DNA of 24,937 bases from Candidatus Thorarchaeota archaeon (GTDB lineage: Archaea; Asgardarchaeota; Thorarchaeia; Thorarchaeales; Thorarchaeaceae). The stretch spans positions 52,129 to 77,065 of the forward strand of contig RDNZ01000010.1 in NCBI GenBank assembly GCA_011364905.1, read 5' to 3'. The notes under the pieces are model-generated. The model did no database searches. It saw only the letters and a list, made by a program, of their open reading frames with translations, and was not told where the DNA came from. Each line of letters starts with the position of its first letter. The stretch's first letter is position 1. This document shows positions 1,361-23,700 of the stretch, one piece after another. The position numbers and the translations under genes are program-made.

Positions 1361-4282
1361 CTAGAGGTCGACATTCTTCTTCCTGAAATACCACTTGTAT
1401 AGTTCTACACCAACGATTGATGGGAGAGAACCAAGGAGCACTATTGACCAATCAAAGCTGGTCAAAGGCATGAAGTAGAAATGAAGGCCATAAGGCGCAA
1501 GAATTTCCTGAGCCAAAGGTACATACATGAGTAGGTAATGAGCCAAATAGATCAATCCTAGTAGGAACACGAAAATCCAAGTTCCAGGTTCTCGGATACT
1601 TCTCGTGATTGGCATATTGATTCTTCGAATGCTAATGACAATCGTACTCTCCACTAATAGTATGACCGAGAGCAACATGGTAGTTGCCTTCGCTTGGTTG
1701 AGTGGTACCAGGAATTCACCAATTGTGGAATAGTAACCAGTGAGATTCTCTGGAACAACACCAACAATACCTGTGAGGGTCATCATGTAGATAGCTGCAG
1801 CCCCGATAGTCATCAGGATGACGTTCAACACCATGAATTTCCCGAGGTTGCGAGTGATGAGGGCTTGGCTATCGCGGGGTTTGTCTTCCATTGCATGCGG
1901 CGATGTCCTGTCAAAGACCAGTGCTAATCCAGGAAATGAGTGAGTTGTTACAACCAGGTACAGGCTCTGCCAGAGGGATAATGTGGTGATGGTGTCGGGT
2001 AAGAAGAACAGAGCGCCAAAGAAGATCATGCTCTCAAAGACGTTGATAGCCACATAGAAGTAGATCATCATTCTGATCTTGTTGAAGAGCCCTCTTCCTT
2101 GATGCACTCCCGATACTATTGAAGCAAAACTGTCATCTGTGATGACAAGATCTGCTGCTTCTTTCGCAACATCAGTCCCAGTGATACCCATTGCTATCCC
2201 AGCATCGCTCATGGCAAGGGCTAGCGCATCATTGACACCGTCCCCAGTCATTGCGACGACTCGTTGTTGGTCTTGATAACGTTCAACGATGATTTGTTTA
2301 TGGTCGGGGTTTACTCTGGCGAAAACATTTGTACGGGCGAAGTCGTCGTCCGAAACATCTTCAATCTCACTCCCCTCAACAACGAGGGAGTTTGCGTTGA
2401 AGATGCCCAAGTCTTCAGCGATGGTTTTTGCAGTCGCAGCAGCATCTCCAGTGATCATTATGACATTAATTCCCGCACTGTGGCACTCTGAAACAGCCTC
2501 TTTCACACCATCCCGAGGCGGATCAACGATACAGGCAAAGCCGAGATAGATGAGGTCGTTCTCAGTTTCTTCACGTGCATCCTTCCCAGTTGGAACCTTG
2601 TCCATGTGTCGGTAGGCAAGTGAAATCACGCGATACCCTCTAGAGGCAAAATCAGTGGTGAGCGTTCGGACTTTGTTGACGAGGCCTGGAGTGATCTTTG
2701 ATGGAGTTTCTTTTCCGTCAACCATTGTACACTTGGTTAACAATACTTCAGTGGCACCCTTGCAGAAGGCAACGAATTTCTTGCCATCCTTACATATCTT
2801 TGTCATGCGTTTTAATTCCGACTCGAACGGGTACTCCTCTACAATCTGATACTTCTTGGTGATGGCTTCTTTGTCAATTCCGCTTTTTCGGAACAATGTT
2901 AGTAAGGCGGCATCTGTCGGGTCGCCCAATGGTTTCCAGACTTCGCCTTGTTCAGGCAGTACCTCTCTCACTATCTCAGAGTCATTATTTATTCCGCCAC
3001 AGACCACTAGACGATAGAGCCCCTTCCACTTGAAGACATCTTTCACCTCTTCCTCAGCAACATCAGGGATTAGATCATGATCCTCATCCTTGAGAAGATG
3101 AATTGCACCAAGGGGATCATAGCCATCACCCTTTACAGAGTAAAGATTGTGGGTATCCCAGCAGTATTTCACAGTCATCTGGTTACGCGTCATCGTACCA
3201 GTCTTGTCACTGCAAATTACACTGACCCGTCCGAGGCTTTCCACCGCAGAGAGGTCTCGAATGATGACACCCTTCTTGGCCATCGCCAAAACTCCCGTCA
3301 AGAGAACAATGGTTGTAAGGAGTGGGATGTTGATGGGCATGATGGTCATTGCGCGGTTTATGGCTTCCTGCATTTGTAGCAGCACATTTACAAAGCTAGT
3401 GTTAGGAACTCGACCATTGAGCCAATCATACACGAAGACCTGCCACAATACAGAAACGGTCAGGAGAATGATTGCAGCGATTCCCAAGTACTTTGCCAGA
3501 AGGTTCACTTTTCTTCTAAGAGGAATATCGCCAGTGTTTAGCTGTTGAAGAGTACCTTGAATTTTGCCTATCTCGGTTCGACCACCAGTTGCTGTTGTAA
3601 TAACAGTGGCCATTCCTGTTGATACATAGGTGCCGAAGAAGACCATATTCCTCATATCGGTCAATGGCACATCTGTAGCAACAATAGAGTCCTCATCCTT
3701 GGCAACAGGTACGCTCTCACCAGTCAGAGAAGCCTCATTTGTTGTGAGATTCGATGATCTAATAATTCTACCATCAGCTGGAATTCTATCACCCTGATCG
3801 AGTTTCACAATGTCCCCAGGTACTATTTCGAAGGGAGGAATGCTCTTCTCAGAGCCTCCTCGAATTACTCGTGCTTCTCCTGCAGAGAGTTTCTCTAGGG
3901 CTTCCAGCTTCTTCTGTGCCCTATATTGTTGGAATATCGCTACAAGCGCATTGATGGCAACAATTGCGAGCCAGACTAGAGCTTGTCCCATATCGTTCTG
4001 ACCTGAAGGTAGCAATTGTGCTATGATGATGAGTCCAAATGAGCTGAGGATATAGATTGTAATTAGCCAATTCATAATGGGGGCAATATAGACTTGCCAG
4101 AAGGGACCGCGAATCTTGGGGATGGCATTCTCTCCAAATCGGTGAAGTCTTTCCTTTACCTCAGAATCCGATAGCCCCTTTTCAGAATCAGCTTGAAGAG
4201 TCTTGCAGACTTCCTCGAGAGGTATTGCATGATACGCATGAGTCTCGGAAGGTTCCGTTGTGATGGCGTCTTCATTGGACAA
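1361..4282 (-). CDS. P-type ATPase with a P2A-like scaffold and an atypical transport site; substrate unknown
   Basis: A-domain LTGES, phosphorylation site CSDKTGT, GDPTD, KGATE, DPPR, MITGD and hinge TGDGVND, with about 10 hydrophobic segments. M4 reads MPINIP rather than PEGLP. Confidence 0.93.
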   Translation of the reverse strand: MSNEDAITTEPSETHAYHAIPLEEVCKTLQADSEKGLSDSEVKERLHRFGENAIPKIRGPFWQVYIAPIMNWLITIYILSSFGLIIIAQLLPSGQNDMGQALVWLAIVAINALVAIFQQYRAQKKLEALEKLSAGEARVIRGGSEKSIPPFEIVPGDIVKLDQGDRIPADGRIIRSSNLTTNEASLTGESVPVAKDEDSIVATDVPLTDMRNMVFFGTYVSTGMATVITTATGGRTEIGKIQGTLQQLNTGDIPLRRKVNLLAKYLGIAAIILLTVSVLWQVFVYDWLNGRVPNTSFVNVLLQMQEAINRAMTIMPINIPLLTTIVLLTGVLAMAKKGVIIRDLSAVESLGRVSVICSDKTGTMTRNQMTVKYCWDTHNLYSVKGDGYDPLGAIHLLKDEDHDLIPDVAEEEVKDVFKWKGLYRLVVCGGINNDSEIVREVLPEQGEVWKPLGDPTDAALLTLFRKSGIDKEAITKKYQIVEEYPFESELKRMTKICKDGKKFVAFCKGATEVLLTKCTMVDGKETPSKITPGLVNKVRTLTTDFASRGYRVISLAYRHMDKVPTGKDAREETENDLIYLGFACIVDPPRDGVKEAVSECHSAGINVIMITGDAAATAKTIAEDLGIFNANSLVVEGSEIEDVSDDDFARTNVFARVNPDHKQIIVERYQDQQRVVAMTGDGVNDALALAMSDAGIAMGITGTDVAKEAADLVITDDSFASIVSGVHQGRGLFNKIRMMIYFYVAINVFESMIFFGALFFLPDTITTLSLWQSLYLVVTTHSFPGLALVFDRTSPHAMEDKPRDSQALITRNLGKFMVLNVILMTIGAAAIYMMTLTGIVGVVPENLTGYYSTIGEFLVPLNQAKATTMLLSVILLVESTIVISIRRINMPITRSIREPGTWIFVFLLGLIYLAHYLLMYVPLAQEILAPYGLHFYFMPLTSFDWSIVLLGSLPSIVGVELYKWYFRKKNVDL

Positions 4283-4519
4283 TGCTGCGACCTCTCAGGG
4301 TATTCATGCTTTATTCTTTCTACAGATAAATCAAACTCGAATGTTCCTACCTCAAGTCCGATGTATACCTGTGTCCTTTTTACACCTTTTGAAGATTTCC
4401 GGTTTAGTCAAGCTGAGGACGGGGCTACTAGCAAAAGGCTGCCATCTCCGATAGGTTCTTGTGCTCTTTGGTGAGGATTGACAGGCCGCGTGAGTGTATC
4501 AACGGCCTTGGTGAAAGCG

Positions 4520-8938: not shown

Positions 8939-9361
8939 TTGAAGAACGGGCTTTCTGTTGCATTAGCACTTATTGGCGGAGTATTGCTCTTCCAAGTGGG
9001 CTGGGTTGGAAATATCGGATTCATTGCCGATATTGCTGTCTATGCAGAAACATACTTTCCAGCAGCATCTGAAATCATCACATTAATCCTCACTATTCTG
9101 CTCTACATTGCCTCATTGGGAGGTATAGCAGTTATAATTGGTGGATTGCTTATCGCAGTGAGTCGAATTCGACCAGCCAAGTTTGTGATTGGTCTAGGTG
9201 CTGGTGTAGGACTCATTGGGCTCATTATCATGTTAGTAGAAGCATATCTGGCTGGTGGAGTTGCTGCACTCATGGAAATACTTACGCTGATTTCGCAGTC
9301 TATTGCATGGATAGGAGTCATCCTCTCAATAGTAGCACGAAATAGAGCTAAGTCCGATTAA
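8939..9361 (+). CDS. Hypothetical membrane protein, about 4 TM, with an apparent internal duplication
   Basis: Almost entirely hydrophobic 140 aa, with a GGTGA RBS before the TTG start. Confidence 0.75.
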   Translation: MKNGLSVALALIGGVLLFQVGWVGNIGFIADIAVYAETYFPAASEIITLILTILLYIASLGGIAVIIGGLLIAVSRIRPAKFVIGLGAGVGLIGLIIMLVEAYLAGGVAALMEILTLISQSIAWIGVILSIVARNRAKSD

Positions 9362-10721: not shown

Positions 10722-13016
10722 TTGCCTGAGCAATTTGAGACATGCACCTTAGATGTTGGAGAAGACATCATTCGTCTCAGCAATGGTGTAGTTACTGTTT
10801 GGTTCAATACCTTAGTTGGCACTTTTGACCTCACATCTGCAGACCTAGCTACCTCCTATTTCTCCCGGGCGTATGCACGAGTCGTTACGACTGAGCATAC
10901 TTATGACTCTAGAACCATGACTTACCGAGAAGTGACATCACTCGATTTTAATGACATGAGAGGAAAAGGAAAGGTTGTTGTCATACGACTACAAGACCCA
11001 GAGAAACATGTAGAAATGAATGTACGTTTGAGTCTGGCATTAGGGGACTTAGGGTACTATTGTATTGTCCAATTGAGAAATCTGGGGGATGAACTCACTA
11101 TTGAGGTACTCAATCCATTCGTCATTGATGTGGACAATAATGACCGCATTCAAACTGGATGGAAAGGAGAGACCCTTAGGTATTTTAAAAATGGGTTTCA
11201 TTCTTGGGAATTGAGTCAGACTCTCCCACTGGCGCCTAGGGAAAATCTGAGTCACACTTACTCGGTACTCAATTGTATTGACCGCAATCTAGCACTCATA
11301 CTCGGTTTTGTGACCTTAGCTGATCAGTTCACGACACTCTCTTTTTGGAAGGACTTAGAAGAGGATAGACTCACACAGGTCGTGGCTTCGTCACAAGCAG
11401 ACTTCGTGTCACTAAAGGAGAAAGGGTCTATTGCATCTGAGGAACTCTTCATCCTTGTGGATACGGATCCCAGGGAGGGCCTCATTCAATATGTTCGATC
11501 TGTGTCTCAGAAGATGGGGGCACGGGTTGGAATGCCTCCCGTAGGTTGGAGTAGCTGGCCTTACTACTTCAATAGACCTGATGAAAAAGCGATTCTAGAA
11601 AATGCTAAGCTCATCAACCAGCATTTCTCTGAGGATATTAGATGGATTCAACTTGATGATGGATACCAAAGAGCTGTAGGGGATTGGGAAACAAACCCCA
11701 GGTTCCAGAACGGCCTCAAGAATTTAGTGGAGAAGATAAAATCCCTTGGTTTCAAAGCTGGAATCTGGGTCGCTCCCTTTATTGCATCCCAACACTCAAA
11801 GCTATTTCAGGAGCAACCTGATTGGTTTGTAAAAGGAGAAGACTCCAAACCTCTCGTGGTCGGAGAGAACCCACTGTGGCTTGGAGAATTCTATGCCTTG
11901 GATCTCACGAATCCGCATGTAATCAGTCACGTTAGAGACCTATTTACTGAGTTCGTGGAGATGGGTTTTGAATACTTTAAGATTGATTTTCTCCATCATG
12001 CCACAATTGCTGGAAAAAGACATGATGAAAGCATTACCCGCTGTATGGCATTTAGAAGAGGATTGAAGGAAGTACGAGAAGCTGTTGGTGAATCCTATAT
12101 CTTGGCGTGTGGTGCACCTCTTGGACCTGCCATAGGACTTGTTGATGGGATGCGGATAGGAACAGACATTGGTGCAGTATGGAGATATGATTGGGGAGGA
12201 GGTGTTTATGAGTGCTCAATAAACACGCTTTCTCGTTCAGTGCTGCACAATCATTGGTGGCTAAATGATCCAGATTGTATTATTGTAAGACAAGATGACA
12301 CTGAACTCACAATTGACGAAGTGGTACTTTGGGCCACCGTGGTTGCTCTGAGTGGAGGAGCCCAAATGATGGGTGATAATCTGAGTGAAGTTTCAGATGC
12401 ACGTCTTGCAATTCTGAACAAAGTTATGCCACCATTCAAAGAGGGTGCTATAGCTGCTGATTATCTCATGAAGTCGGAACCCCGCCTATTCGTGTTACCA
12501 ATAGAGTCGCCGCTCGGTGAATGGACTGTGGTCGGAGTCGTAAACATTGGAGAGCGAGATATCGATGTGGACATTCCTTTTGATGAGATTGGACTTAGCG
12601 ATGGAATACCACACCATGTCTTTGAATTCTGGTCCGAGCAGTATGAAGGACTCTACGAAGATCTCTACACAGTGAGGAATTTGAGCCCCCATATGGGAGA
12701 GCTCCTGTGCTTTAGACCAGAATCGCAAGTTCCAGCAGTACTCTCTACTAGTATGCATTACACTCAAGGAGCAGTAGAAATCGTTGACCAGATCTGGGAT
12801 GAAAGGAACTTTGAGCTTAGTATCACTGTAAAGAAGACCGTAAAGAGGCCTGAAGCAGTGTTTTTTTCAGTCAGCAATGAGTTTGTACCCGAGTCCGCGC
12901 TCATTGAAGATGAACCAATCGAACTAGAGTCCATTGCTCCAGAGGTCGTAGCAGTGAGATATCAGTTTGCCAGAGGGCAAACTATTCGCATAAAGTTCCG
13001 ACAACTCACTGAGTGA
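10722..13016 (+). CDS. Glycoside hydrolase family 36 (alpha-galactosidase-like)
   Basis: Motifs GWSSW, IQLDDGYQ, GIWVAPF, LDLTNP, YFKIDF (nucleophile Asp), RIGTD (acid/base Asp) and WLNDPD. GGAGG RBS before the TTG start; no signal peptide. Confidence 0.9.
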   Translation: MPEQFETCTLDVGEDIIRLSNGVVTVWFNTLVGTFDLTSADLATSYFSRAYARVVTTEHTYDSRTMTYREVTSLDFNDMRGKGKVVVIRLQDPEKHVEMNVRLSLALGDLGYYCIVQLRNLGDELTIEVLNPFVIDVDNNDRIQTGWKGETLRYFKNGFHSWELSQTLPLAPRENLSHTYSVLNCIDRNLALILGFVTLADQFTTLSFWKDLEEDRLTQVVASSQADFVSLKEKGSIASEELFILVDTDPREGLIQYVRSVSQKMGARVGMPPVGWSSWPYYFNRPDEKAILENAKLINQHFSEDIRWIQLDDGYQRAVGDWETNPRFQNGLKNLVEKIKSLGFKAGIWVAPFIASQHSKLFQEQPDWFVKGEDSKPLVVGENPLWLGEFYALDLTNPHVISHVRDLFTEFVEMGFEYFKIDFLHHATIAGKRHDESITRCMAFRRGLKEVREAVGESYILACGAPLGPAIGLVDGMRIGTDIGAVWRYDWGGGVYECSINTLSRSVLHNHWWLNDPDCIIVRQDDTELTIDEVVLWATVVALSGGAQMMGDNLSEVSDARLAILNKVMPPFKEGAIAADYLMKSEPRLFVLPIESPLGEWTVVGVVNIGERDIDVDIPFDEIGLSDGIPHHVFEFWSEQYEGLYEDLYTVRNLSPHMGELLCFRPESQVPAVLSTSMHYTQGAVEIVDQIWDERNFELSITVKKTVKRPEAVFFSVSNEFVPESALIEDEPIELESIAPEVVAVRYQFARGQTIRIKFRQLTE

Positions 13017-13911
13017 CCTTGTTACGCAAGTAACCGATTTTTTCGATGTACAACTCCAACCGATCACCCGCTTTCAAGAATTCAGGAGGCTCTCTCACAA
13101 AGCCTACACCAGAAGGCGTACCTGTTGCAATCACATCGCCCGGTTCGAGAGTAAAGGACTTGGATAGGAATGAAACAATCTTGCGAACATTGAAAATCAT
13201 CTCGGAGGTGGTCGACTCCTGCTTCAAAACTCCGTTCACTTTTGTATGCATCTTCAGCTTTGATGCATCGCCAAGCTCATCCTGGGTCACAATGCATGGA
13301 CCCATAGGGCAGAATCCATCCAGTGATTTTGCACGGACCCACTGACCATCGTTCTTTTGGAGGTCACGCGCGGAAACATCATTGATCACGGTGTAGCCTG
13401 CAACATACTCTAGCGACTTTTTCTCACTGACGTCCCTACAGCTCTTTCCAATGACTATGCCAAGCTCAACCTCCCAATCAATCATCGATGATACCTCTGG
13501 AATGCGGATGTGGTCATCAGGGCCTATCACGCTGGAGGGAAACTTGGCGAAAACCACTGGAAACTTAGGAACATCGGAACCTGTTTCCTCAACATGGTTC
13601 AGATAGTTCTTTCCCAGAGCTACGATTTTTCCGGGACGTGAAATGGGAGGTTCAAGAGTTATAGAACTAAGGGGGCGGGTCATGATTCGTCCACTCTTAG
13701 GAGTCTTCATGTACCGTTGAACAATCTGGCGAACCACATCAATCCCAGATTCCCACTGTAAAAGATCCATCATGGTAGTAGGAAAACTGTGGCCTCTCAC
13801 GTGATACTTTCTGCCAAAGTGAGAAGCAGCATCTGGGATGTCAAGGACTCCTGATTCAAGTTCTACGCCGATTGAAGGCACTCCCATCCTTGCATATGTG
13901 ACAAGTCGCAT
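13006..13911 (-). CDS. Fumarylacetoacetate hydrolase (FAH) family protein
   Basis: Motifs KIVALGKNY..H, FAKFPSS, DWEVEL, NDVSARDLQ, W.RAKS.D.FCPMGP and GDVIATGTPSGVG. Its 3' end overlaps the GH36 gene's 3' end by 11 nt. Confidence 0.93.
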   Translation of the reverse strand: MRLVTYARMGVPSIGVELESGVLDIPDAASHFGRKYHVRGHSFPTTMMDLLQWESGIDVVRQIVQRYMKTPKSGRIMTRPLSSITLEPPISRPGKIVALGKNYLNHVEETGSDVPKFPVVFAKFPSSVIGPDDHIRIPEVSSMIDWEVELGIVIGKSCRDVSEKKSLEYVAGYTVINDVSARDLQKNDGQWVRAKSLDGFCPMGPCIVTQDELGDASKLKMHTKVNGVLKQESTTSEMIFNVRKIVSFLSKSFTLEPGDVIATGTPSGVGFVREPPEFLKAGDRLELYIEKIGYLRNKVTQ

Positions 13912-13975
13912 AGAGATTTGTGAACAACCATCTCATTTATCCGTAATGGTACATAGGTCGATTGTGGTGAAAAGT

Positions 13976-14302
13976 ATGGCAGATGACCGATCACTGCAAG
14001 AGCTGCCAGACAGAGTATATGTTGCCCTAGGGAGAAGAGGAATGGAGCCTCTACCACTGAAGGAGTGCACTTACGATTGTGACGGAAAAGAACTGAAACT
14101 CATCAAGCCTCCAAACAATCAGAAGATTCCCGAGAAGGGTAGTGTCGAAGTTGATGAGGATTGGTTGGTTGAGTGTGAAAAGTGTAGTCGACATTTTACA
14201 ATTCGATGCAAAATACACTATCTTGATGGAGAGAAACTTGAAACAAGAGTCAACATCATAGATGATAGTGGTAAGGACTTAGGCTGGCTAGGGAGTTACT
14301 AG
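13976..14302 (+). CDS. Small hypothetical protein, probable Zn-binding (C-x3-C ... C-x2-C)
   Basis: ATG 13976 follows GGTGA (13966-13970); the longer ORF from 13838 overlaps the FAH gene. Contains CTYDC and CEKC. The stop abuts the next gene's GGTGA RBS. Confidence 0.75.
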   Translation: MADDRSLQELPDRVYVALGRRGMEPLPLKECTYDCDGKELKLIKPPNNQKIPEKGSVEVDEDWLVECEKCSRHFTIRCKIHYLDGEKLETRVNIIDDSGKDLGWLGSY

Positions 14303-14312
14303 GTGATCAGTT

Positions 14313-15455
14313 TTGGCTCGTAAGTACAAGATTGCATTGCTGCCTGGGGATGGGATAGGCAGGGAGGTTATCTCAGAGGCCAGAAGGGTACTAGATGAAG
14401 TGATCACTTGGATAGATGGACTTGAAATGGAAATCCATGAGTTTGATTGCGGCGGGGAGTACTTTCTCAGGACCAACCGAGAATGGTCAGAAGAGGCTGA
14501 GGATTTCACAAAGACTGAGGCGGATGCCGTTTTATTCGGTGGAATTGGAGCGATAGGTCCAGATGGCAAGACTGTCAGACGACCTGACGGAAATCTTGCG
14601 GGCTACAGCGTGGTCATTGGACTAAGACACGAGCTTGACCTCTATGCCAATGTAAGACCTGTGAAGCTGTTTGAAGGTGTACCAACACCGCTAGTTTCGA
14701 AAGGACCAAAGGATATTGACATGGTGGTTGTTCGAGAAAACACAGAGGGCCTTTACTATCCCGCACGCGGACGAGTCAAGGAGTCAGACCGGGATTTCGC
14801 ATATGACTTGAGGATAATCACTACTCGCGGCTCAGAGAGAATTGCCAGATATGCATTCGACCTAGCCATGACCAGAAACGGTGCACCAGTTGATGGAAGA
14901 AGACGCGTGACCTGTGTCGACAAAAGCAATCTCCTTGCTGGTTGCCAGCTTTTCAGAGAGACTTTCACTAGAGTTGGAGAGGAGTATAAAGAAACTTCAA
15001 AGGATTATGCCTATGTCGATGCTTGGACATTGTTAGCAATCAGGAAACCTGAGTACTATGATGTGGTTGTTGCTCCAAATGAGTTTGGAGACATAATAAG
15101 CGATTTAGGAGCAGCCCTTCAGGGCGGACTAGGTGTGGCACCTTCGGGGAACATCGGTGTTAAGCATGCAGTCTTTGAACCGGTACATGGATCTGCACCA
15201 GATATTGCAGGAACCGGAAAGGCGAATCCCATTGCGGCCATACTATCGATGGCAATGATGTTTGAATGGTTGGGCAAGAATCACGATGATGCTGTTTCGA
15301 TAAGGACAGCGGAGAAAATCAGGAACTCAGTCGAATTAGTGCTTCACGAAGGGAGAATTCGAACACCGGACCTCTGCCTTGGAGAGTGGTCCGGTGTAGT
15401 ACCTTCAACGACCCAACAAGTGACTGATGAAGTAATTCGAAAGATGAAGGGGTGA
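14313..15455 (+). CDS. leuB: Beta-decarboxylating dehydrogenase (3-isopropylmalate/homoisocitrate/tartrate-D-malate family)
   Basis: Motifs LPGDGIGREV, LR..LDLYANVRP, VRENTEGLY, VDKSN, N.FGDIISD, FEPVHGSAPDIAG and ANPIAAILS. The symbol is family-level only; substrate is not established. Confidence 0.88.
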   Translation: MARKYKIALLPGDGIGREVISEARRVLDEVITWIDGLEMEIHEFDCGGEYFLRTNREWSEEAEDFTKTEADAVLFGGIGAIGPDGKTVRRPDGNLAGYSVVIGLRHELDLYANVRPVKLFEGVPTPLVSKGPKDIDMVVVRENTEGLYYPARGRVKESDRDFAYDLRIITTRGSERIARYAFDLAMTRNGAPVDGRRRVTCVDKSNLLAGCQLFRETFTRVGEEYKETSKDYAYVDAWTLLAIRKPEYYDVVVAPNEFGDIISDLGAALQGGLGVAPSGNIGVKHAVFEPVHGSAPDIAGTGKANPIAAILSMAMMFEWLGKNHDDAVSIRTAEKIRNSVELVLHEGRIRTPDLCLGEWSGVVPSTTQQVTDEVIRKMKG

Positions 15456-15459
15456 CCTC

Positions 15460-16725
15460 ATGGGACAGACTATAGCAGAGAAGATACTAGCGAGTCATAC
15501 TGAAGATGGAAAAGCTAGTGCAGGAGAAATCATTGAAGCCAGAGTCGATCTATTGATGGTACACGAGGTGTTGGGGTCAAGAATTCTGCCAATCCTTGAC
15601 GAGATGGGATTCAAGAAGGTCTGGAACCCAAACCGGGTGCTTGTAGTAAATGATCATTGGGCTCCCGCATCCGATATTAATAGTGCCGAAATTCACAGGA
15701 GAAACAGAAACTTCGTGAAAGAACAGGGAATCACTAATTTCTGCGATGTGGACTGTGGAATATCCCATCAAGTTCTCCCGGAGATGGGTTTGGTTGTCCC
15801 AGGAGCAACCATCATTGGAAGTGACTCCCACTCCACAACTTATGGTGCCTTCAACGCTTTCTCAACAGGACTTGCAGCAACTGATTCAGCATTGATACTA
15901 GCCACAGGAGTATGCTGGTTCAGAGTTCCTGAATCACTGAGGATTGAAATCTCGGGTGAGCTAGGTGAGCGAGTGATGAGTAAAGACCTGATATTGAAAA
16001 TCATAAACCAACTAGGCCCAGATGGAGCGAACTATCAATCTATGGAGTTTCATGGACCCACTATCGATGCCATGAGTGTAGGAGAACGAATGACCATGTG
16101 CAACATGACTGTTGAGGCTGGAGCCAAGTGCGCGCCAATGCCAATCAATCAGGATGTGAGGTTTTGGATGGAGGACTTTGCACCAAAGAAAAAATGGAAG
16201 GAGGTCACAAACGACTCGGATGCGGAATATGTCGACACCCTCCAGTTTGATCTTAATGAGGACCCCCTTGAACCTACAGTTGCCCCACCAGAACTTCCAA
16301 CCAATGGAAAACCAGTTGCAGAGGTCGAAGGAGTCCCAATCGATCAAGCATTCATCGGTTCATGCACCAATGGTCGAATTGGAGATTTAATCATAGCAGC
16401 TGAAATACTGAAAGGCAGAAAAATCCACAAAGGCGTTCGTCTAATAGTCACCCCAGCGAGTAAAGCGACATACATGGAGGCTCTAGAGCGAGGCATCATT
16501 AAGATACTTATGGAATCTGGAGGCATCGTCACCAACTCCACGTGCGGCGCATGTGTGGGGGGACATCTTGGTGTTCTGGGACCAGGTGATGTTTGTATAT
16601 CAAGCACGAATCGAAACTTCAGGGGAAGGATGGGACATCAAGACTCCAGAATCTACCTTGCCTCTCCTGCGACCGTGGCTGCTAGTGCATTGAAGGGTGT
16701 AATCACAGACCCACGGAGTGTGTGA
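15460..16725 (+). CDS. leuC: 3-isopropylmalate dehydratase/homoaconitase large subunit (archaeal-type LeuC/HacA)
   Basis: Motifs MGQTIAEKIL, DH, GISHQV, GSDSHSTTYGA and CNMTVEAGAK; [4Fe-4S] cysteines in GSCTNGR and CGACVG; SSTNRNF.GRMG and YLASP. The symbol is family-level only. Confidence 0.92.
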   Translation: MGQTIAEKILASHTEDGKASAGEIIEARVDLLMVHEVLGSRILPILDEMGFKKVWNPNRVLVVNDHWAPASDINSAEIHRRNRNFVKEQGITNFCDVDCGISHQVLPEMGLVVPGATIIGSDSHSTTYGAFNAFSTGLAATDSALILATGVCWFRVPESLRIEISGELGERVMSKDLILKIINQLGPDGANYQSMEFHGPTIDAMSVGERMTMCNMTVEAGAKCAPMPINQDVRFWMEDFAPKKKWKEVTNDSDAEYVDTLQFDLNEDPLEPTVAPPELPTNGKPVAEVEGVPIDQAFIGSCTNGRIGDLIIAAEILKGRKIHKGVRLIVTPASKATYMEALERGIIKILMESGGIVTNSTCGACVGGHLGVLGPGDVCISSTNRNFRGRMGHQDSRIYLASPATVAASALKGVITDPRSV

Positions 16726-16728
16726 GAA

Positions 16729-17244
16729 ATGGTGCAGCGTTTCAGCAATATTACAGGGAGAGCATGGGTCTTTGGGAACAACATCAACACGGATCAGATA
16801 ATTCAGGGGCAATACCTCAGACTCCTTGACTATAGCGAGATGGCAAAACATACCTTTGAAATACCAAGGCCACTGTTTGCATCTAGAGTGAAGAAAAACG
16901 ACATTGTAGTTGCGGGGCACAACTTTGGTGGTGGGTCGTCACGTGAAGAAGCGCCCAAGGTCCTTCTGCACAGTGGTGTGGGTTGTGTTGTTGCTGAATC
17001 ATTTGCAAGGATTTTCTATAGGAACTCCTTCAACATAGGCCTTCCACTTCTAATTGTGCAGAATGGTTCAAAGCTTGTGAAAGACGGAGAAACTGTCACT
17101 GTGAACCTTTTGGAAGGGACTCTGACGATTAAGGAGAAAGGAGATGTCATTCATGGGAAGCCTTTGCCTAATAGGATGTTGGAGATTCTGAAAGCGGGCG
17201 GAGCTGTCCCGTGGTACAAGCAGAGGGCTGGGCACAAGGGCTGA
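16729..17244 (+). CDS. leuD: 3-isopropylmalate dehydratase/homoaconitase small subunit (LeuD/HacB)
   Basis: Motifs GRAWVFGNNINTDQII, AG.NFG.GSSRE.A, AESFARIFYRN..N.GLP and ILKAGG. The substrate loop reads YLRL. The symbol is family-level only. Confidence 0.92.
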   Translation: MVQRFSNITGRAWVFGNNINTDQIIQGQYLRLLDYSEMAKHTFEIPRPLFASRVKKNDIVVAGHNFGGGSSREEAPKVLLHSGVGCVVAESFARIFYRNSFNIGLPLLIVQNGSKLVKDGETVTVNLLEGTLTIKEKGDVIHGKPLPNRMLEILKAGGAVPWYKQRAGHKG

Positions 17245-17306
17245 CTGAAAAACGCTAAAAGGCATCAGGCGCTGACACGCAGAAGACACCTTAGAGAGGT
17301 CACCCA

Positions 17307-19094
17307 ATGAACGTAATAGTGTTTCTTCTGATTAGCTTGATAGTTCATGCCATTCCGATTCCTTTCAGACAGGAGATGTTGAGGCCCAACAAATTGATCA
17401 AGTGGCTTCCATTTCGACTTGTCTGGGGTACTGGAGCATGGATTATCATTTGTTTGGTGCTAGTCTCCACGCTACCATGGGCGATTCTCACATTGATAAT
17501 CAGCTTTGGAGCCCTGTTAGTCGTTTCCAGTGGTTTTCGTGCAAGACGTATTGACGAAGTTCTTGAAGGCGTTCGAATGCCATTCGCATGTATTGGCATT
17601 CTCATAGTAATAATCGTACCAGTATTCTCTGGCGTCATAAGCTGGACTTCAGACGTGTCCAATGCGGAGTTCTTTAATTCTATGATAATTGTGAGCAACG
17701 AGCCCCTCTTCAACCATACAATTGCTGATAACAAGGTGAGGCTTGTCACAGAGGAATACGCGACGTATGTGGCGGGTCAACACATGTCGCCATTTGGGTC
17801 CAATGTACGTGTCGCTGCAGCGCACATAACAACGAATCAAAATGGAACACTGGTTTGGGTGTGTACGATTGTATCAACGAACGTCCTAGCTGAGAATTAT
17901 GTGAAGGGTTTCATTGTTGTAGATGCTAACGACCCACAATCAGTAGAACCTCAACTCATTTTGAATACGACGATTCCTGTGGGAGAGGGACTATTCTGGG
18001 ACAAGGACATCCAATTTAGAAACTACTTGAATGATATGACAGCTAGCTATCAATATGCATATCCAACATGGGACCCCGTTGGAAATCTTGTATATATCCA
18101 AACCCGAACACCTCTCGGATTCGACTTTGTTGAAAGAGCGAGCGGGCCTATCGTCTATGCTGAGAATGGTTCAGTCTTTAGTTATGCGACCATCGAGGAT
18201 ACTCCTGACTGGATAACTCAAGCCTATGGAGAGCAGTATCTCGAACGCCAGATCACACGATGGGGCAGCTATCGTCGGGGAGATGGTTTTGATCTTTTTG
18301 CTGGAGGACTACTATGGTTTATCCCGCCCTCAAACAGCCGGTTAGAGATAACAGAGGACACCCGGTACATCGTCAACCCTGATACAAACCGAGTTGAAGC
18401 ATTCATAGCCGTCCATCCTGTCACCTCAAGCAGAACGTTGGCTGGTGTCTTCAGAGCTACAAAAGATGCTGTCTATTACCATGATTTTAGCGCAGAAGGC
18501 TATGTGAGCGGTGACGCTGCTTCTGCTGCGGTTGTAGCAGACATCGGGGCTCCTGCCAGCGGATCATATTATGGCGCAATGCCACTACTATATCCTGTTG
18601 CCATCAATTCAACTCTGATAAAGTGGACCTGGTATACACCAATCTATTGGGCTGACTACCAGTACGACGCGGAAACTGATGAATACACTGCGACGAATAT
18701 GCGACTTTATGCACTGGGTATGGTGGATGCCTCAGACGCAGACAAGCATACCTGGGTACCTCAGCAAGGATTGATCACTGGTGCAGATTTTGTTTATGCG
18801 GTGCGTTCAGAGTATGTGAAACTCTTTGGGGGATCGATCGAACCTGAACCATCGAGCGCCTTTACAATGAGTGCATCTGTGGTAAACAAGACATCATATG
18901 TTGAAAATGGAAATACCCACATTGTACTTCGGACAGATAATGCCACAATTCCATATATTGAGGGGGCACGAGCTTGGATGAACTTAACCGACTGGTATAC
19001 TCTACTGAACGAGATTGGTGCGGGTGACAGTTTCACAGCCTCAATCCAGATTGTTGGTGACATGTATAGGATTGTAGCAATAACAAAGATCTAG
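17307..19094 (+). CDS. Hypothetical membrane protein: about 4 N-terminal TM helices plus a large, probably extracellular, beta-rich region
   Basis: 595-aa ORF with a GAGGT RBS. The first ~115 aa are hydrophobic; the rest is Tyr/Trp/Thr-rich with N-x-S/T sequons (NHT, NGT, NTT, NGS, NST, NKT, NAT, NLT). Confidence 0.8.
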   Translation: MNVIVFLLISLIVHAIPIPFRQEMLRPNKLIKWLPFRLVWGTGAWIIICLVLVSTLPWAILTLIISFGALLVVSSGFRARRIDEVLEGVRMPFACIGILIVIIVPVFSGVISWTSDVSNAEFFNSMIIVSNEPLFNHTIADNKVRLVTEEYATYVAGQHMSPFGSNVRVAAAHITTNQNGTLVWVCTIVSTNVLAENYVKGFIVVDANDPQSVEPQLILNTTIPVGEGLFWDKDIQFRNYLNDMTASYQYAYPTWDPVGNLVYIQTRTPLGFDFVERASGPIVYAENGSVFSYATIEDTPDWITQAYGEQYLERQITRWGSYRRGDGFDLFAGGLLWFIPPSNSRLEITEDTRYIVNPDTNRVEAFIAVHPVTSSRTLAGVFRATKDAVYYHDFSAEGYVSGDAASAAVVADIGAPASGSYYGAMPLLYPVAINSTLIKWTWYTPIYWADYQYDAETDEYTATNMRLYALGMVDASDADKHTWVPQQGLITGADFVYAVRSEYVKLFGGSIEPEPSSAFTMSASVVNKTSYVENGNTHIVLRTDNATIPYIEGARAWMNLTDWYTLLNEIGAGDSFTASIQIVGDMYRIVAITKI

Positions 19095-19102
19095 AAAGTG
19101 AA

Positions 19103-19131
19103 AGGGGTGGATCATTTCCACCTTTCTTTTT
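19103..19131. terminator. Hairpin plus T-tract between convergent genes (likely terminator)
   Basis: AGGGGTGGA (19103-19111) pairs with TCCACCTTT (19117-19125), followed by CTTTTT, in the 37-nt gap between convergent stops. Confidence 0.55.
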
Positions 19132-20301
19132 CTATTCCGGGAAAAACTCCTTGAAGACCTCGCGTTGAATGAGAAATCGAAGAATCTCCGCCGTCCCACC
19201 ACCGATCGTCATGAGTCGTGCATCTCTGAGGAACCGCTCGACTGGATAATCAGTGGTATATCCCATCCCACCAAGAATCTGTAGGGCATCATTGGTAATC
19301 TGAATAGCAGCCTCAGTGGTGTAGAGCTTTGCAATTGACGCCTGTTTCGTAATCTTCTCGCCTTTGTCATACATCCTTGCCGCTGTGAGTGTGAGGGCGC
19401 GTCCTGCTTCAAGCTTCATTGCCATGTCAGCAACTTTGAAGCTTACTCCCTCAAATGCACGTATGGGCCGTCCGAACTGGTGGCGTTCATTTGCATACTT
19501 GACAGAAATCTCATAGGGAGTCCTGGCATATCCAATAGCCTCTCCTGCGATAGCAGTTCTCTCTGAGTCTAACTCATCCATCAAAATATGGAAGCCTTCA
19601 CCGGGCTTTCCGAGAAGCCTGTCACCAGGCACCCGGACATCCTCGAATTTCAACCAAGAAACCCTGGCTGATTTCATACCTAGAAGCTCGTGGTCTTGCA
19701 CGACCTTGAATCCATCAGACTTTGTGTCAACTATGAATGCAGACATGCCATCCTTTGAGTGAACATCGGGATTAGTAATGGCGAAAGCACACATGTAGTC
19801 AGCTTGGCTCCCGTTCGTGATGAACCTCTTCTCACCGTTGAGGACCCAGTCATCTCCATCTTTCACAGCCTTAGTCTTCATTCCTGCAGTATCACTACCG
19901 ACATCAGGTTCGGTAATACCAATACAACCAATTTTCTCACCAGCCACCACTGGCTCTAAGAACTTCTTCCTTTGTTCAGGAGTTCCAAAACGTGAAACGG
20001 GCATTCCATAGAGCGTCGTGGAAGCCATACGAGCCATGTCGAGACCTCCATTCACAGCCGAGATCTCCTCAGCAACTATGATCTCATAGGAAAGACCTCT
20101 ATCCGTTCCACCATCAGCTCTGTCATGGTGAACACCCATATACCCCGCCTTTCCAATCTTTCTGAGAAGCTCCCTGGGATATGGGCCCTTGTCAATTTCA
20201 TCCGCAATTGGTGCGATTTCCTTTGCACAGAACTCCTGTAGTTCTCTTCTAAAGGCAATCTCATCGTCGGTCCAAAGGGCACTTGTAAGATAGTCAACCA
20301 T
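19132..20301 (-). CDS. Acyl-CoA dehydrogenase (isovaleryl-CoA/LCAD-type position of the catalytic Glu)
   Basis: Motifs GITEPDVGSD, LNGEKRFITNG, R.QFGRPI, ALQILGGMGY and ERFLRDARLMTIGGGTAEI, with LDSER on helix G. Confidence 0.93.
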   Translation of the reverse strand: MVDYLTSALWTDDEIAFRRELQEFCAKEIAPIADEIDKGPYPRELLRKIGKAGYMGVHHDRADGGTDRGLSYEIIVAEEISAVNGGLDMARMASTTLYGMPVSRFGTPEQRKKFLEPVVAGEKIGCIGITEPDVGSDTAGMKTKAVKDGDDWVLNGEKRFITNGSQADYMCAFAITNPDVHSKDGMSAFIVDTKSDGFKVVQDHELLGMKSARVSWLKFEDVRVPGDRLLGKPGEGFHILMDELDSERTAIAGEAIGYARTPYEISVKYANERHQFGRPIRAFEGVSFKVADMAMKLEAGRALTLTAARMYDKGEKITKQASIAKLYTTEAAIQITNDALQILGGMGYTTDYPVERFLRDARLMTIGGGTAEILRFLIQREVFKEFFPE

Positions 20302-20364
20302 TATTGAAACCTAGATTCTTTGGAAGAGCTTCTGCTTAAATTCATAGCTGCCGGCGCAGAGGTT

Positions 20365-20697
20365 CTACTTTTCAGGTTGATATCGAAATCTACCTTCTTT
20401 ATCGAACTCAATGGATACTGAATCACCAATGCTGACAGCTGCTTTAGCTTGATCAATTGCCAGACAAAGAATCAAAGCACCATGCTCAAGCTCAACAAGC
20501 GCCATCGAGAGCGGGGCTTGAAATCCATCCGGTGGATTGTGAAGTGTCGTAAAACTCAGAACGGTCCCTTGAGGAGACAGATTCAGTTTCTCCATTGCTC
20601 CACCGCTAAATCCGCAATAGGGACAAGTCTCTCTAGGAGGGACAATGATCCTTTGACATGACCTGCATTTTGAGCTGGGTATCGTTTGAGCTGACAT
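20365..20697 (-). CDS. DUF35-family Zn-ribbon/OB-fold protein
   Basis: CRSC...PPR.TCPYC zinc ribbon followed by GTVLSFTTLH.PP.GF..P..MALVEL..G and ..IGD.V OB-fold pattern. Confidence 0.88.
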   Translation of the reverse strand: MSAQTIPSSKCRSCQRIIVPPRETCPYCGFSGGAMEKLNLSPQGTVLSFTTLHNPPDGFQAPLSMALVELEHGALILCLAIDQAKAAVSIGDSVSIEFDKEGRFRYQPEK

Positions 20698-20778: not shown

Positions 20779-23700
20779 TCACTCCTCAATATCCCTGAAA
20801 GACTCCACTAGGCTGATTAGCTCCTGCTTCGTCAGACGTTTGAGCTCGTTGGGAGGGGTGGTTTTTCTGATATCTTCAGGGATGAGCTCGAGGAGTTCCT
20901 TCTTGGTCATTGTTGATAGATCCACCGGAGCTTTTGGTTCGATGAACTCCTCAGGAACACTATCGTAGTCAGGATACTCTGGTTTCACCTCAGGTTCCGC
21001 AATGGGTTCCTCGATTGCCTCTGGTTCCAACTCCGGTTCAGGGAGAGGCTCCTCTGAAATCTCGGGTCCTTCACTGATTGGAGTCTCAGGCTCAATCTCA
21101 GGTTCTTCTATCGGAGCCTCCATTTCTTCAGGCTCTGGAACTTCAGTGACAGCTTCAATCTCAGGTTCCACTGGCAGTTCTTCAGCCAAGAGTAACTCCT
21201 CATCCATTGGTGGAAGCTCCGTCTCCACTGGCTCAGGTGAAATCTCAGGCTCTGCGACACCCTCAAGCTCGGCAGGTTCAGCCACCTCGGGTACAACCTC
21301 CTCAGGGGCGGCCTCAACCTCAGGCTCGATGGTTTCCGGTTCTACTGGAGCAACTTCCGCTACGGGTTCAGAAACTCCGAAATCACCGGGCTCCAAGTCT
21401 TTAGTGCCAACCGTAGCTCCGCCTTTTCGTCGACGTGACGCAACAATCGCCACACCAAGAACTGCAATACCACCTCCGGCTCCAAGAATCATCAAGGTCA
21501 TTGGATCAAGCGCAAAGGGAGCAGCTCCAACCCACTCGACCTCAACGCTCAGACCAGCTGTGTCGAGTGAGGAAACTCCATAGTTGTTTCCTGAAACACT
21601 GCTGACAGTGAATGTGTAATTGCCAGAAACCGACTTTGTAACTGATGCGCTCCAATAACCGCCTGCTGAGATATATGACATTGGCACAGATGCAATACCG
21701 TCATTCAGAGTAACCAGACCATCAGTGACTGAAGTAGAGTCGAACTCGTACTCCAGTACTACATGAATCTCTGTTGGAGAGTTAACATCTACTGACGAAG
21801 TTGTAGCTGTGATGGATGTAACTCGAATCCGGTCCCAGATCACTGTTGCGTCGGAAGCTGTCTGCACGAATGCACTCATCTCCCCAAGAGATGCTGACAG
21901 AATGCTATAACTCATACTACCGACAGTACTCTCAGTGACTGATGCAACATAGACACCAGCTGATAGGGTAAGGGCGATTGATCCAGTCATCTGGGCTGTG
22001 ACTCCACTGGTAATGGAGATGCCCGCACTCTCGAGTCGCACACTCCATTCAATATTAGTTGAATCCTCGACATTGATTCTGGAGTCAACCACTGACACCG
22101 AGTAGAACTCAAGGCGGTCCCAGTACACAGTGACAATGTTGCTGTTCATGTTGTACCCATCGATTCCATAGAGAGATGCATTGCAGGTTGTGAGATCATC
22201 AAAGTCTATGGTTTGATACGAACCGACTGTGACTAGGGTTTCCCAAACGCCAGCCCCAACATGAGTCAGTGGGTTGCCTGAAACAGCAAATGTGCCTGCT
22301 AGAACTGGAGTTCCATCATATTCATACTCTAGTCCAACAGATATTGATACATTGTCATTAGGATCGTGGTATAGCTCATCAGCATCAATTGAAACTACTC
22401 GCACTCGATCCCAGATACAGAATGTGACATCATTGATTCCAATGGCTGTTATCCCGTATGAGTCGCCTGTTGCAGTGACTACAGTATAGGCCTGTTTCTG
22501 CGGAGTTGCATACAGAAAGTTTGTGTTGTTTAGTATCAAGTTTCCATCAAATGCTATACCATGGAAAGCATATACAGCACTTGCAACAATTCCACTTGCA
22601 TTGGCACCAACATTGATTCGCTGATCTGTTGGGTTGCTTATCGTAATTACCAGTGAGTCCCAAAGTACTTGCTGTATTGATGTTGAATCGGACCATTGAG
22701 TTAGTCCGTAGGTCAGCTCACTCGCAGAAAACACATCAAAGAGGACCAATACAGGACTAGCAGAGGTTTCTTGCCATCGCCAGTAGAGATTACCGGGGTC
22801 CCAAGCAAGAGTTCGCGATCCATTCAGAACGATTGTCAAACCACTCTGAATCTCTACGGAGTCATACTCGTACCTTGCACGCCACCAGACATCGCAAGCA
22901 GTATCGATGTCTATCCAATCATCAACTGTTCCAGCTTCATAGATCTCAATCCTATCGGTGATGAAGGTGTCGGTCAGACTAGTCGTGTAATAGAGATCAA
23001 CTGCTCCAGAACCAGCACCTTCGGGAACAATCTTGAATGTGTAGGTGTTCATGCGGACTGCTGCTGCTGAACCGATGCTAGAGATGCTGAAACTGCCTGT
23101 TACAAGGTCACCGCTCCAGGCTCCAGCAAGGTCATGAATGACCCAGACATCAGTCTCATTGGAATGCGGGCTTAGAGCAGAGCCGAAGTAGGTAACGGAG
23201 CCAGTGCCGACCAAGTCGGCAGTGTTGACATCTCCTCGATCCTCAGATAATGAGGGAACAACGGAATAGGTAAGACGGGTTTCCATATTCCAGTTGGTCT
23301 CATAGAAGTCTGAAGCACTCGTAATACCGTCACTAACAAACTGAAGAATGTCTGTGTTTACGACATTTGAGTGATTCCAACCAATTTTGATGTACCAAGT
23401 AATTGTAAGAGTGTCACCCACGCCTACCGCATTGGACAAGAGACCTATACTCACATTCGATCCACCAGATTCAACAGAGAATAGACCTGAACCAGCGGTG
23501 TATCGAATGGTCCAGTACTGAGTGACATCGTCATCTGAGTAGAGTGTCAGCTCAACATAGTTGATGTCAATATACCCATCAGGATCGCTAACAGATGTGA
23601 TTATCACGTAGTATCGATACCGCGCATAGAGGTAGTCTGTATCATCAGCATTCGTTAGCACCGGACTTGAATCGTTAACGGGAGCTTCGTTCGGAGCAAG

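Follow-up and report, generated by a model that had tools for sequence, protein, structure and literature searches.

The stretch of DNA analysed here (24,937 nucleotides of the Candidatus Thorarchaeota contig RDNZ01000010.1, positions 52,129 to 77,065; hereafter the window) encodes on its minus strand a P-type ATPase, the main subject of this report. The reading frame is uninterrupted over 973 amino acids (aa) and opens with TTG; no other start codon lies between it and an in-frame TGA upstream. The protein carries the full Pfam domain set of P2/P3-type pumps (Cation_ATPase_N, E1-E2_ATPase, Cation_ATPase, Hydrolase, and Cation_ATPase_C). Inside the intergenic region shared with a divergent subtilase gene, about 30-40 nucleotides (nt) upstream of the TTG, the A/T-rich stretch GAAAGAATAAAG may act as a promoter element. 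Public pipelines label the protein as a Ca2+-transporting ATPase, and the names on near-identical public proteins identify the host as a Thorarchaeote, i.e., a member of the Asgard archaea, a possibility that a preliminary description of the sequence had raised.

The same description had claimed an intact catalytic machinery combined with a rewired transport site, and both points are borne out. The motifs TGES, DKTGT, and GDGVND were each located by coordinate (Table 1), as were the membrane motifs. HMMER alignments agree with the earlier manual alignment in assigning PINIP to the fourth membrane helix (M4) and in the replacements E309 to Ile, N796 to Val, and D800 to His (SERCA numbering). 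With SERCA1a, Asn747, Glu750, Val777, Thr780, His781, and Glu878 align with N768, E771, N796, T799, D800, and E908, respectively; with LMCA1, Ile317 falls under the Glu of the M4 motif, and Val777, Thr780, and His781 fall under Asn, Asn, and Asp. In SERCA, Ca2+ site I is surrounded by D800, E771, N768, T799, and E908, and site II by E309, N796, D800, and backbone carbonyls of M4. The site II side chains are thus gone from the window protein, and the Asn and two Glu residues of site I are kept. The claimed retention of T799, however, is limited to this protein and its Thorarchaeote relatives, because position 780 is variable in the family described below (Val, Thr, Ala, Leu, Ser, or Ile). The most conserved novelty of M4, Asn318 at the position of SERCA G310, had been overlooked.

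A homologue search over 1.84 billion cluster representatives yields a graded series down to approximately 35% identity, beneath which the matches change abruptly to pumps with PEGLP and T-D-G/S motifs (PEGLP pumps). All 121 homologues at 65-100% identity contain IMPINIP, and 119 of the 121 contain an M6 of the T-H-S-F-P type, so the substitutions proved to be conserved in orthologues. Farther away, about 40 clusters (50% identity) share P-[I/V/F/W/L]-N-[I/L/F]-[P/V] in M4, N..E in M5, His at the D800 position, and Glu in M8. The deepest subclades (PFNFP and PWNFP) and tandem paralogues at 41-45% identity retain the same residue set, and the new membrane residues are kept across paralogues at 35-45% identity. 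The ratio of nonsynonymous to synonymous substitution rates (dN/dS) is about 0.04, a rough figure obtained from the two of 29 pairs with computable dS, which is near saturation. Decay or a sequencing error is excluded by this ratio and by the conservation in the 121 close homologues and the distant clusters.

Table 1. Positions of the ATPase gene, its motifs and key residues, and the adjoining intergenic region in the window
Feature	Position	Strand	Basis or remark
P-type ATPase gene, 973 aa	1361..4282	-	translation, Pfam
TGES, A-domain dephosphorylation motif, residues 187-190	3713..3724	-	Gly and Glu invariant, Thr and Ser nearly so (54 family members)
M4 PINIP, P316-P320; I317 at SERCA E309 position, N318 at G310 position	3323..3337	-	alignment
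DKTGT, including phosphorylated Asp359	3194..3208	-	invariant in family alignment
GDGVND hinge motif, residues 680-685	2228..2245	-	read by coordinate
M5 NVFE, N747-V-F-E750, equivalents of SERCA N768 and E771	2033..2044	-	HMMER alignment
M6 TTHSFP	1931..1948	-	HMMER alignment
His781 at SERCA D800 position	1940..1942	-	HMMER alignment
V777 at SERCA N796 position	1952..1954	-	HMMER alignment
M8 Glu878 (LLVES), equivalent of SERCA E908	1649..1651	-	HMMER alignment
Divergent intergenic region, 195 nt, between ATPase and subtilase genes	4283..4477		read directly

The contrast with the PEGLP pumps becomes clear when 54 family members and 100 PEGLP pumps are compared position by position. Two residues are common to both groups, Glu750 (54/54 in the family, 91/100 in the PEGLP pumps) and Asn747 (50/54 and 95/100). 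At the D800 position, the family has His in 53 of 54 members and the PEGLP pumps have Asp in 92 of 100; at the E309 position, Glu is found in all 100 PEGLP pumps and in none of the 54 family members, where the residue is always hydrophobic (Ile, Phe, Val, Leu, or Trp). Asn318 (48/54) replaces a Gly present in 93/100, position 777 is mostly Phe, Tyr, or Val instead of Asn (96/100), and the M8 residue is Glu in 50/54, compared with Gln in 58 and Glu in 34 of the 100 PEGLP pumps. The A domain contains TGES in 50 of the 54 family members and DGET in none. The neutral residues P68 (M1) and Q119 (M2) are also specific to the clade, the PEGLP pumps having Gln in M1 and Glu in M2 (96%); we take these positions to correspond to SERCA Q56 and E109, going by an alignment with SPCA1.

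Some members of the family deviate from the common pattern. In the f22 lineage (L120:6922-9930 and L123:6949-10038), Ile replaces the M8 Glu, and another lineage (L119:7054-9996 and P0131) has PIMIP in M4 along with His-Asp in M6, which is possibly a compensating pair. Tandem or near-tandem double copies occur in other Asgard families (L118:1187-7495, L122:6898-12872, L129:7062-15632, and L135:6989-13782); the copies are 41-69% identical, and both carry the N..E, His, and Glu signature. Many genomes of the f9 and f24 groups have two matches each.

Class placement and distribution

The protein contains the features that mark the superfamily of P-type ATPases, i.e., DKTGT, the TGES loop, the GDGxND hinge, and the E1-E2, HAD, and nucleotide-binding domains. 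A motif check and the Pfam search revealed neither a CPx motif nor an HMA domain in the protein, both features of P1B pumps, which carry the CPx/SPC motif in the M4-equivalent helix and have eight membrane helices. From the signature of P2A Ca2+-ATPases it departs at the Glu of M4 PEGL and at the Asn and Asp of M6 (N796, D800). It remains below every NCBIfam equivalog cut-off: the PMR1-type model TIGR01522 gives 464.5 bits (cut-off 798.3), followed by the P2D ENA-type model TIGR01523 as second best (423.9; 645), the SERCA-type TIGR01116 (418.5; 703.4), a PMCA-type model (404; 507), the P3A model TIGR01647 (330.7; 615.5), the P1B model TIGR01525 (247; 346), a P5 model (217; 618), and the P4 model TIGR01652 (104; 431). 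Other family members score alike, and two PEGLP pumps reach about 680-700 bits on the PMR1 model. Among sequences of solved structures, the protein matches LMCA1 best (411 bits), then SPCA1, SERCA, Na,K-ATPase, and a plant PMCA-type pump. The ranking by the family profile is similar: LMCA1 731 bits, SERCA 700, SPCA1 690, Na,K-ATPase 591, H,K-ATPase 565, and PfATP4 552. A specific kinship with the P2D pumps, which was considered, finds no support in this overall similarity.

A quick maximum likelihood tree (LG+G4) was built from 68 rows, namely 30 family members, 33 PEGLP pumps, and the other five P-type ATPases of the source genome. It was rooted on the two CPC pumps (P1B) of that genome, and eukaryotic reference subfamilies and ENA sequences were not included. 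The family forms one clade (SH-like approximate likelihood ratio test 100, stem 0.41) within a poorly resolved radiation of PEGLP pumps, and the P3A-like pump of the genome is placed outside the P2 group. Because the tree is a quick one and is without eukaryotic reference subfamilies, a derivation of the family from within the prokaryotic P2A-like pumps is the best reading of these sequences rather than a proven one. An AlphaFold2 model built from a 49-sequence family alignment (mean predicted local distance difference test score 81, predicted template modelling score 0.68) has ten membrane helices, with M4 broken and unwound at residues 315-317. In Foldseek, the closest folds are those of SPCA1 (8iwt) and SERCA2b (6ln8) in E2P-like states, and P4 and P5 structures are absent from the 50 best matches listed. 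Both the fold and the tree therefore agree with a P2A-like placement and the ten-helix P2 architecture. The gene is best explained as encoding a functional P2-type ATPase that would belong to a distinct, old, and Asgard-wide paralogue family in the P2A-like group.

The family profile was calibrated locally: family members score at least 1002 bits, PEGLP pumps at most 879. At E<=1e-290, a score reached by family members only in this calibration, 286 of 400 genomes of the window's phylum contain a match (71 of 90 high-quality genomes). Matches extend over most family-level groups, with counts of 67/85 (f1), 119/135 (f9), 27/31 (f5), 13/14 (f24), 11/12 (f14), and 16/22 (f22); no match at this threshold is found in the smaller groups f27 (0/12), f20 (0/7), f19 (0/6), f7, f17, f15, and f3. 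A looser threshold (E<=1e-150) returned 232 of 251 genomes, which is an overcount because PEGLP paralogues pass it. Two other archaeal phyla (201 and 151 genomes, 352 in total) yielded no match at E<=1e-275. The public names on 30 family representatives are Thor-, Odin-, Hel-, and Promethearchaeota, together with one Korarchaeota record (P0127); since the latter nests inside the Asgard clade, adjoining Thorarchaeote sequences, it points to horizontal transfer or to a contig that was binned wrongly. Promethearchaeota also make up most of the nearest Atlas cluster.

The source genome encodes six P-type ATPases: two of CPC type, one P3A-like, one canonical PEGLP pump, one PEGLI pump, and the window pump. 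Given that two PEGL-type, a P3A-like, and two CPC pumps are present beside it, the window pump appears to be an extra, specialised paralogue. The P3A-like ATPase has IPVALP in M4 and LNDLP in M6. The 1731-aa open frame around it (G000:C11:6815-12010, outside the window), an apparent MFS-ATPase fusion, is an artefact in which a stretch of N bridges the ATPase and an MFS-like gene upstream.

No published description of the PINIP/His signature or of the clade was found in the literature covered, most subscription journals lying outside it. A survey of Asgard transporters published in 2021 mentions only "orthologs of a putative Ca2+ ATPase (TC 3.A.3.2.21)" (PMC7997004), and a 2023 review of open questions on P-type ATPases leaves Asgard archaea unmentioned (PMC10654040). 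The family is thus apparently an undescribed, large Asgard offshoot of the calcium-pump family. The proposal of a candidate new subtype stands, as the substitutions are conserved in orthologues and no characterised subfamily with the signature was found. P-type ATPases fall into a few long-stable subtypes, each marked by a transport-site signature of its own; one more signature would mean one more subtype, with a substrate not readable from any solved pump.

Transport site and possible substrate

The enzyme is expected to follow the standard Post-Albers cycle, in which ATP would phosphorylate Asp359 and the TGES loop would dephosphorylate E2P. Ca2+ site II is filled with hydrophobic side chains (Ile, Phe, or Val for E309; Phe, Tyr, or Val for N796), which would leave a single site at the position of SERCA site I, formed by Glu750 and Asn747 (M5), His781 (M6), Glu878 (M8), and Asn318 where M4 is unwound. 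There, a single small cation that is not Ca2+ would bind from the cytoplasm in E1 and be released outside in E2P. Probably, then, the family pumps one such cation: the conserved polar residues all line or adjoin site I, which speaks for a single site; two buried carboxylates lack a Lys or Arg partner in the membrane, which speaks for a cation; and both acidic residues essential for Ca2+ are lost, which speaks for an ion other than Ca2+. By analogy with other pumps, H+ or Na+, a monovalent ion carried by a Glu-His-Glu cluster, would be a tentative first choice, in view of the P3A-like P-I-x-x-P pattern of M4, the titratable His flanked by Glu, and the P2D ENA precedent described below. The proposal of the preliminary description that H+ or a monovalent cation moves through a Glu-His pair is a reasonable candidate reading. 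The neutral entry path at P68/Q119 may be a clue to a monovalent ion, though a weak one, as some of the charges are missing from SPCA1 and LMCA1 too.

Several points weigh against this assignment. At two positions of the entry path, SPCA1 has Asn and LMCA1 has Thr. His is unusual as a ligand of Na+ or K+, and the ligands, one His with two Glu and two Asn, would be suitable for Mn2+, Fe2+, Co2+, Ni2+, or Zn2+ as well. The neighbourhoods of the 21 loci compared carry no functional hint beyond Thorarchaeote synteny. Similarity to P2D (PfATP4, 552 bits) and P3A pumps (TIGR01647, 331 bits) is lower than that to P2A pumps, and the likeness is one of analogy only. The geometry of the five site residues is presumed from homology to SERCA, and the substrate is a prediction.

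An exporter of divalent transition metals (Mn2+, Fe2+, Co2+, Ni2+, or Zn2+) on the P2 scaffold, with His781, Glu750, and Glu878 as ligands and Asn747 and Asn318 in the shell, is rather unlikely, even though the site itself, with its net charge of -2 and a His conserved in 53 of 54 members, would fit one. Ligand sets of His, Glu, and Asn are typical of sites for borderline metals (ZIP, P1B-4 type), and the hosts mainly inhabit anoxic sediment, in which dissolved Fe2+ and Mn2+ may reach high levels. The genome, however, already holds two CPC-type P1B pumps; the members examined, longer ones included, have no HMA or His-rich accessory domain; and the conserved neighbours at the 21 loci include no metal regulator, no chaperone, and no further gene related to metals. 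To our knowledge, the Mn2+ transport of SPCA is the only transition-metal specificity among P2-type pumps, and the site responsible for it is erased in the family. The public name would instead imply a Ca2+ (or Mg2+) pump operating on site I alone, with His781 in place of Asp800. The best sequence and fold matches (LMCA1, SPCA1, SERCA) and the retained equivalents of N768, E771, and E908 agree with that name, but E309 and D800 are required for Ca2+ binding and occlusion in SERCA, and the two residues, so regular in the PEGLP pumps (100/100 and 92/100), occur in none of the 54 family members. All single-site Ca2+ pumps known to us retain site II, the one lost here, the equivalog cut-offs are missed widely (464 versus 798 bits), and two PEGL-type pumps in the same genome are available for Ca2+. 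A Ca2+ pump is therefore very improbable, and the statement of the preliminary description that the protein is no conventional one is supported.

The same description had suggested a lipid substrate passing a P4-like Ile gate, with implications for the origin of flippases. A bulky or non-metal substrate of this kind (a lipid, a polyamine, or another organic cation) would be in keeping with the hydrophobic residue at the E309 position, reminiscent of P4 PISL, and with the aromatic and aliphatic side chains filling site II. Yet position 317 is merely hydrophobic rather than a conserved Ile, two buried Glu are kept, and M5 has no Lys; the A domain reads TGES instead of DGET; the P4 and P5 models score far below their cut-offs (104 versus 431 and 217 versus 618 bits); and the fold matches, headed by SPCA1 and SERCA, together with the nesting among PEGLP pumps point away from both classes. 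No Cdc50-like gene lies among the conserved neighbours of the 21 loci, a genome-wide search for Cdc50 not having been made. Such a substrate is hardly plausible, and on present evidence the family has no bearing on the origin of lipid flippases. Least plausible of all is a non-transporting, decaying, or purely regulatory paralogue, to which the loss of the classical Ca2+ site and an E1-E2 domain Pfam score that is the lowest among the six P-type ATPases of the genome might point: the frames are full-length in hundreds of genomes, the catalytic motifs are invariant, dN/dS is low, and the new membrane residues are themselves conserved between distant paralogues.

If the family transports H+ or Na+, it could conceivably represent the main ATP-driven pump for these ions in the Asgard cell membrane, with Glu-His-Glu as carrier site, although this extension is doubtful. 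Were it true, P-type membrane energisation, a eukaryotic hallmark, would already have been in place in the archaeal lineage ancestral to eukaryotes. As no known organisms are more closely related to eukaryotes than the hosts, the substrate matters for membrane bioenergetics and ion homeostasis in Asgard archaea. A role of the pump in replacing respiration-driven membrane energisation was also considered and is unsupported: haem-copper oxidase subunit I (PF00115) is found in four family-level groups only (f14 11/12, f22 9/22, f29 2/2, and f26 2/3), of which f14, f22, and f29 also carry the pump.

Gene surroundings

The arrangement around the ATPase is conserved among Thorarchaeotes (window:396-10643, L130-L134): panB and the ATPase gene are accompanied on the opposite strand by genes for a subtilase, an MFS transporter, a PHP-domain protein, a 140-aa open reading frame (ORF), and two TPR proteins. 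Outside the Thorarchaeote family, no neighbour is common to the pump loci (21 loci), and the adjoining genes are unrelated (molybdopterin oxidoreductase, luciferase-like monooxygenase, Lon, M29 peptidase, YhhN, GHMP kinase, and GNAT). Gene context was consequently set aside as a clue to the substrate, the synteny being conserved in Thorarchaeotes only. In three related Thorarchaeote genomes, an ORF of 655-666 aa with a weak match to an E3 UFM1-ligase-like Pfam family (PF09743, E 1.7e-07) lies between panB and the ATPase gene (L130:5200-7200(-), L131:9925-11910(+), and L132:5083-7050(-)); the window has only a 108-nt gap there.

Elsewhere in the window, a metabolic cluster (13006-20697) encodes an FAA-hydrolase family protein, an isocitrate/isopropylmalate dehydrogenase, large and small subunits of the aconitase family (LeuC/LeuD-like), an acyl-CoA dehydrogenase, and a ChsH2-type OB-fold protein. 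Another ORF (20779-24936(-)), 1360 aa or longer, runs past the window end; its only Pfam matches are faint (DUF7738, F-93 winged helix), and it is otherwise unannotated. Three ORFs are without a Pfam match: 17307-19094(+) (595 aa), 13838-14302(+) (154 aa), and 8939-9361(+) (140 aa), the last being the one conserved in the Thorarchaeote synteny block.

Comparison with known pumps

With the P2A pumps (LMCA1, SPCA1/PMR1, SERCA1/2), the family shares the domain set, the ten-helix fold, TGES, DKTGT, GDGVND, and N..E in M5; these pumps provide its best sequence and fold matches, and its clade is nested among PEGLP pumps. It differs from them in carrying Ile instead of the M4 Glu and Asn instead of the Gly that follows, and in having, in M6, a hydrophobic residue for Asn and His for Asp; the M8 Glu has become fixed. 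Its remaining site is lost in single-site Ca2+ pumps, so that the family inverts the usual rule on which SERCA site survives and offers a natural experiment in ion selectivity on the P2 scaffold. P4 flippases (ATP8A2, Drs2), by contrast, share only the initial Pro-Ile of M4: the family has neither DGET nor the M5 Lys, keeps its buried Glu, and is placed with P2 by both fold and tree.

The resemblance to P3A proton pumps (AHA2, Pma1) lies in the P-I-x-x-P pattern of M4, where the E309 position is hydrophobic, and in a single central titratable residue of M6 as the proposed carrier. In P3A pumps this residue is an Asp (AHA2 D684) paired with an Arg of M5 and an Asn of M2, whereas in the family it is a His flanked by two Glu, and the TIGR01647 score lies below the cut-off. 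A precedent within P2 that the preliminary description had missed comes from the P2D ENA pumps (NcENA1, yeast ENA1; PfATP4). NcENA1, which moves Na+/K+, reads IPASL, ENIAQ, and TSGLPD and is a P2 pump that has neither Glu nor Asp where SERCA has E309 and D800 (PMC10779151). The ENA pumps and the family thus share the P2 scaffold, the absence of acidic residues at both positions, and a small polar residue after the hydrophobic residue of M4 (IPASL and TSGLPD compared with PINIP and TTHSFP). However, ENA has Gln at the E771 position and Ser at D800, where the family has Glu and His; the TIGR01523 cut-off is not reached, and PfATP4 ranks below P2A pumps, Na,K-ATPase, and H,K-ATPase on the family profile. 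The likeness to P3A and P2D ENA pumps is analogous, not homologous.

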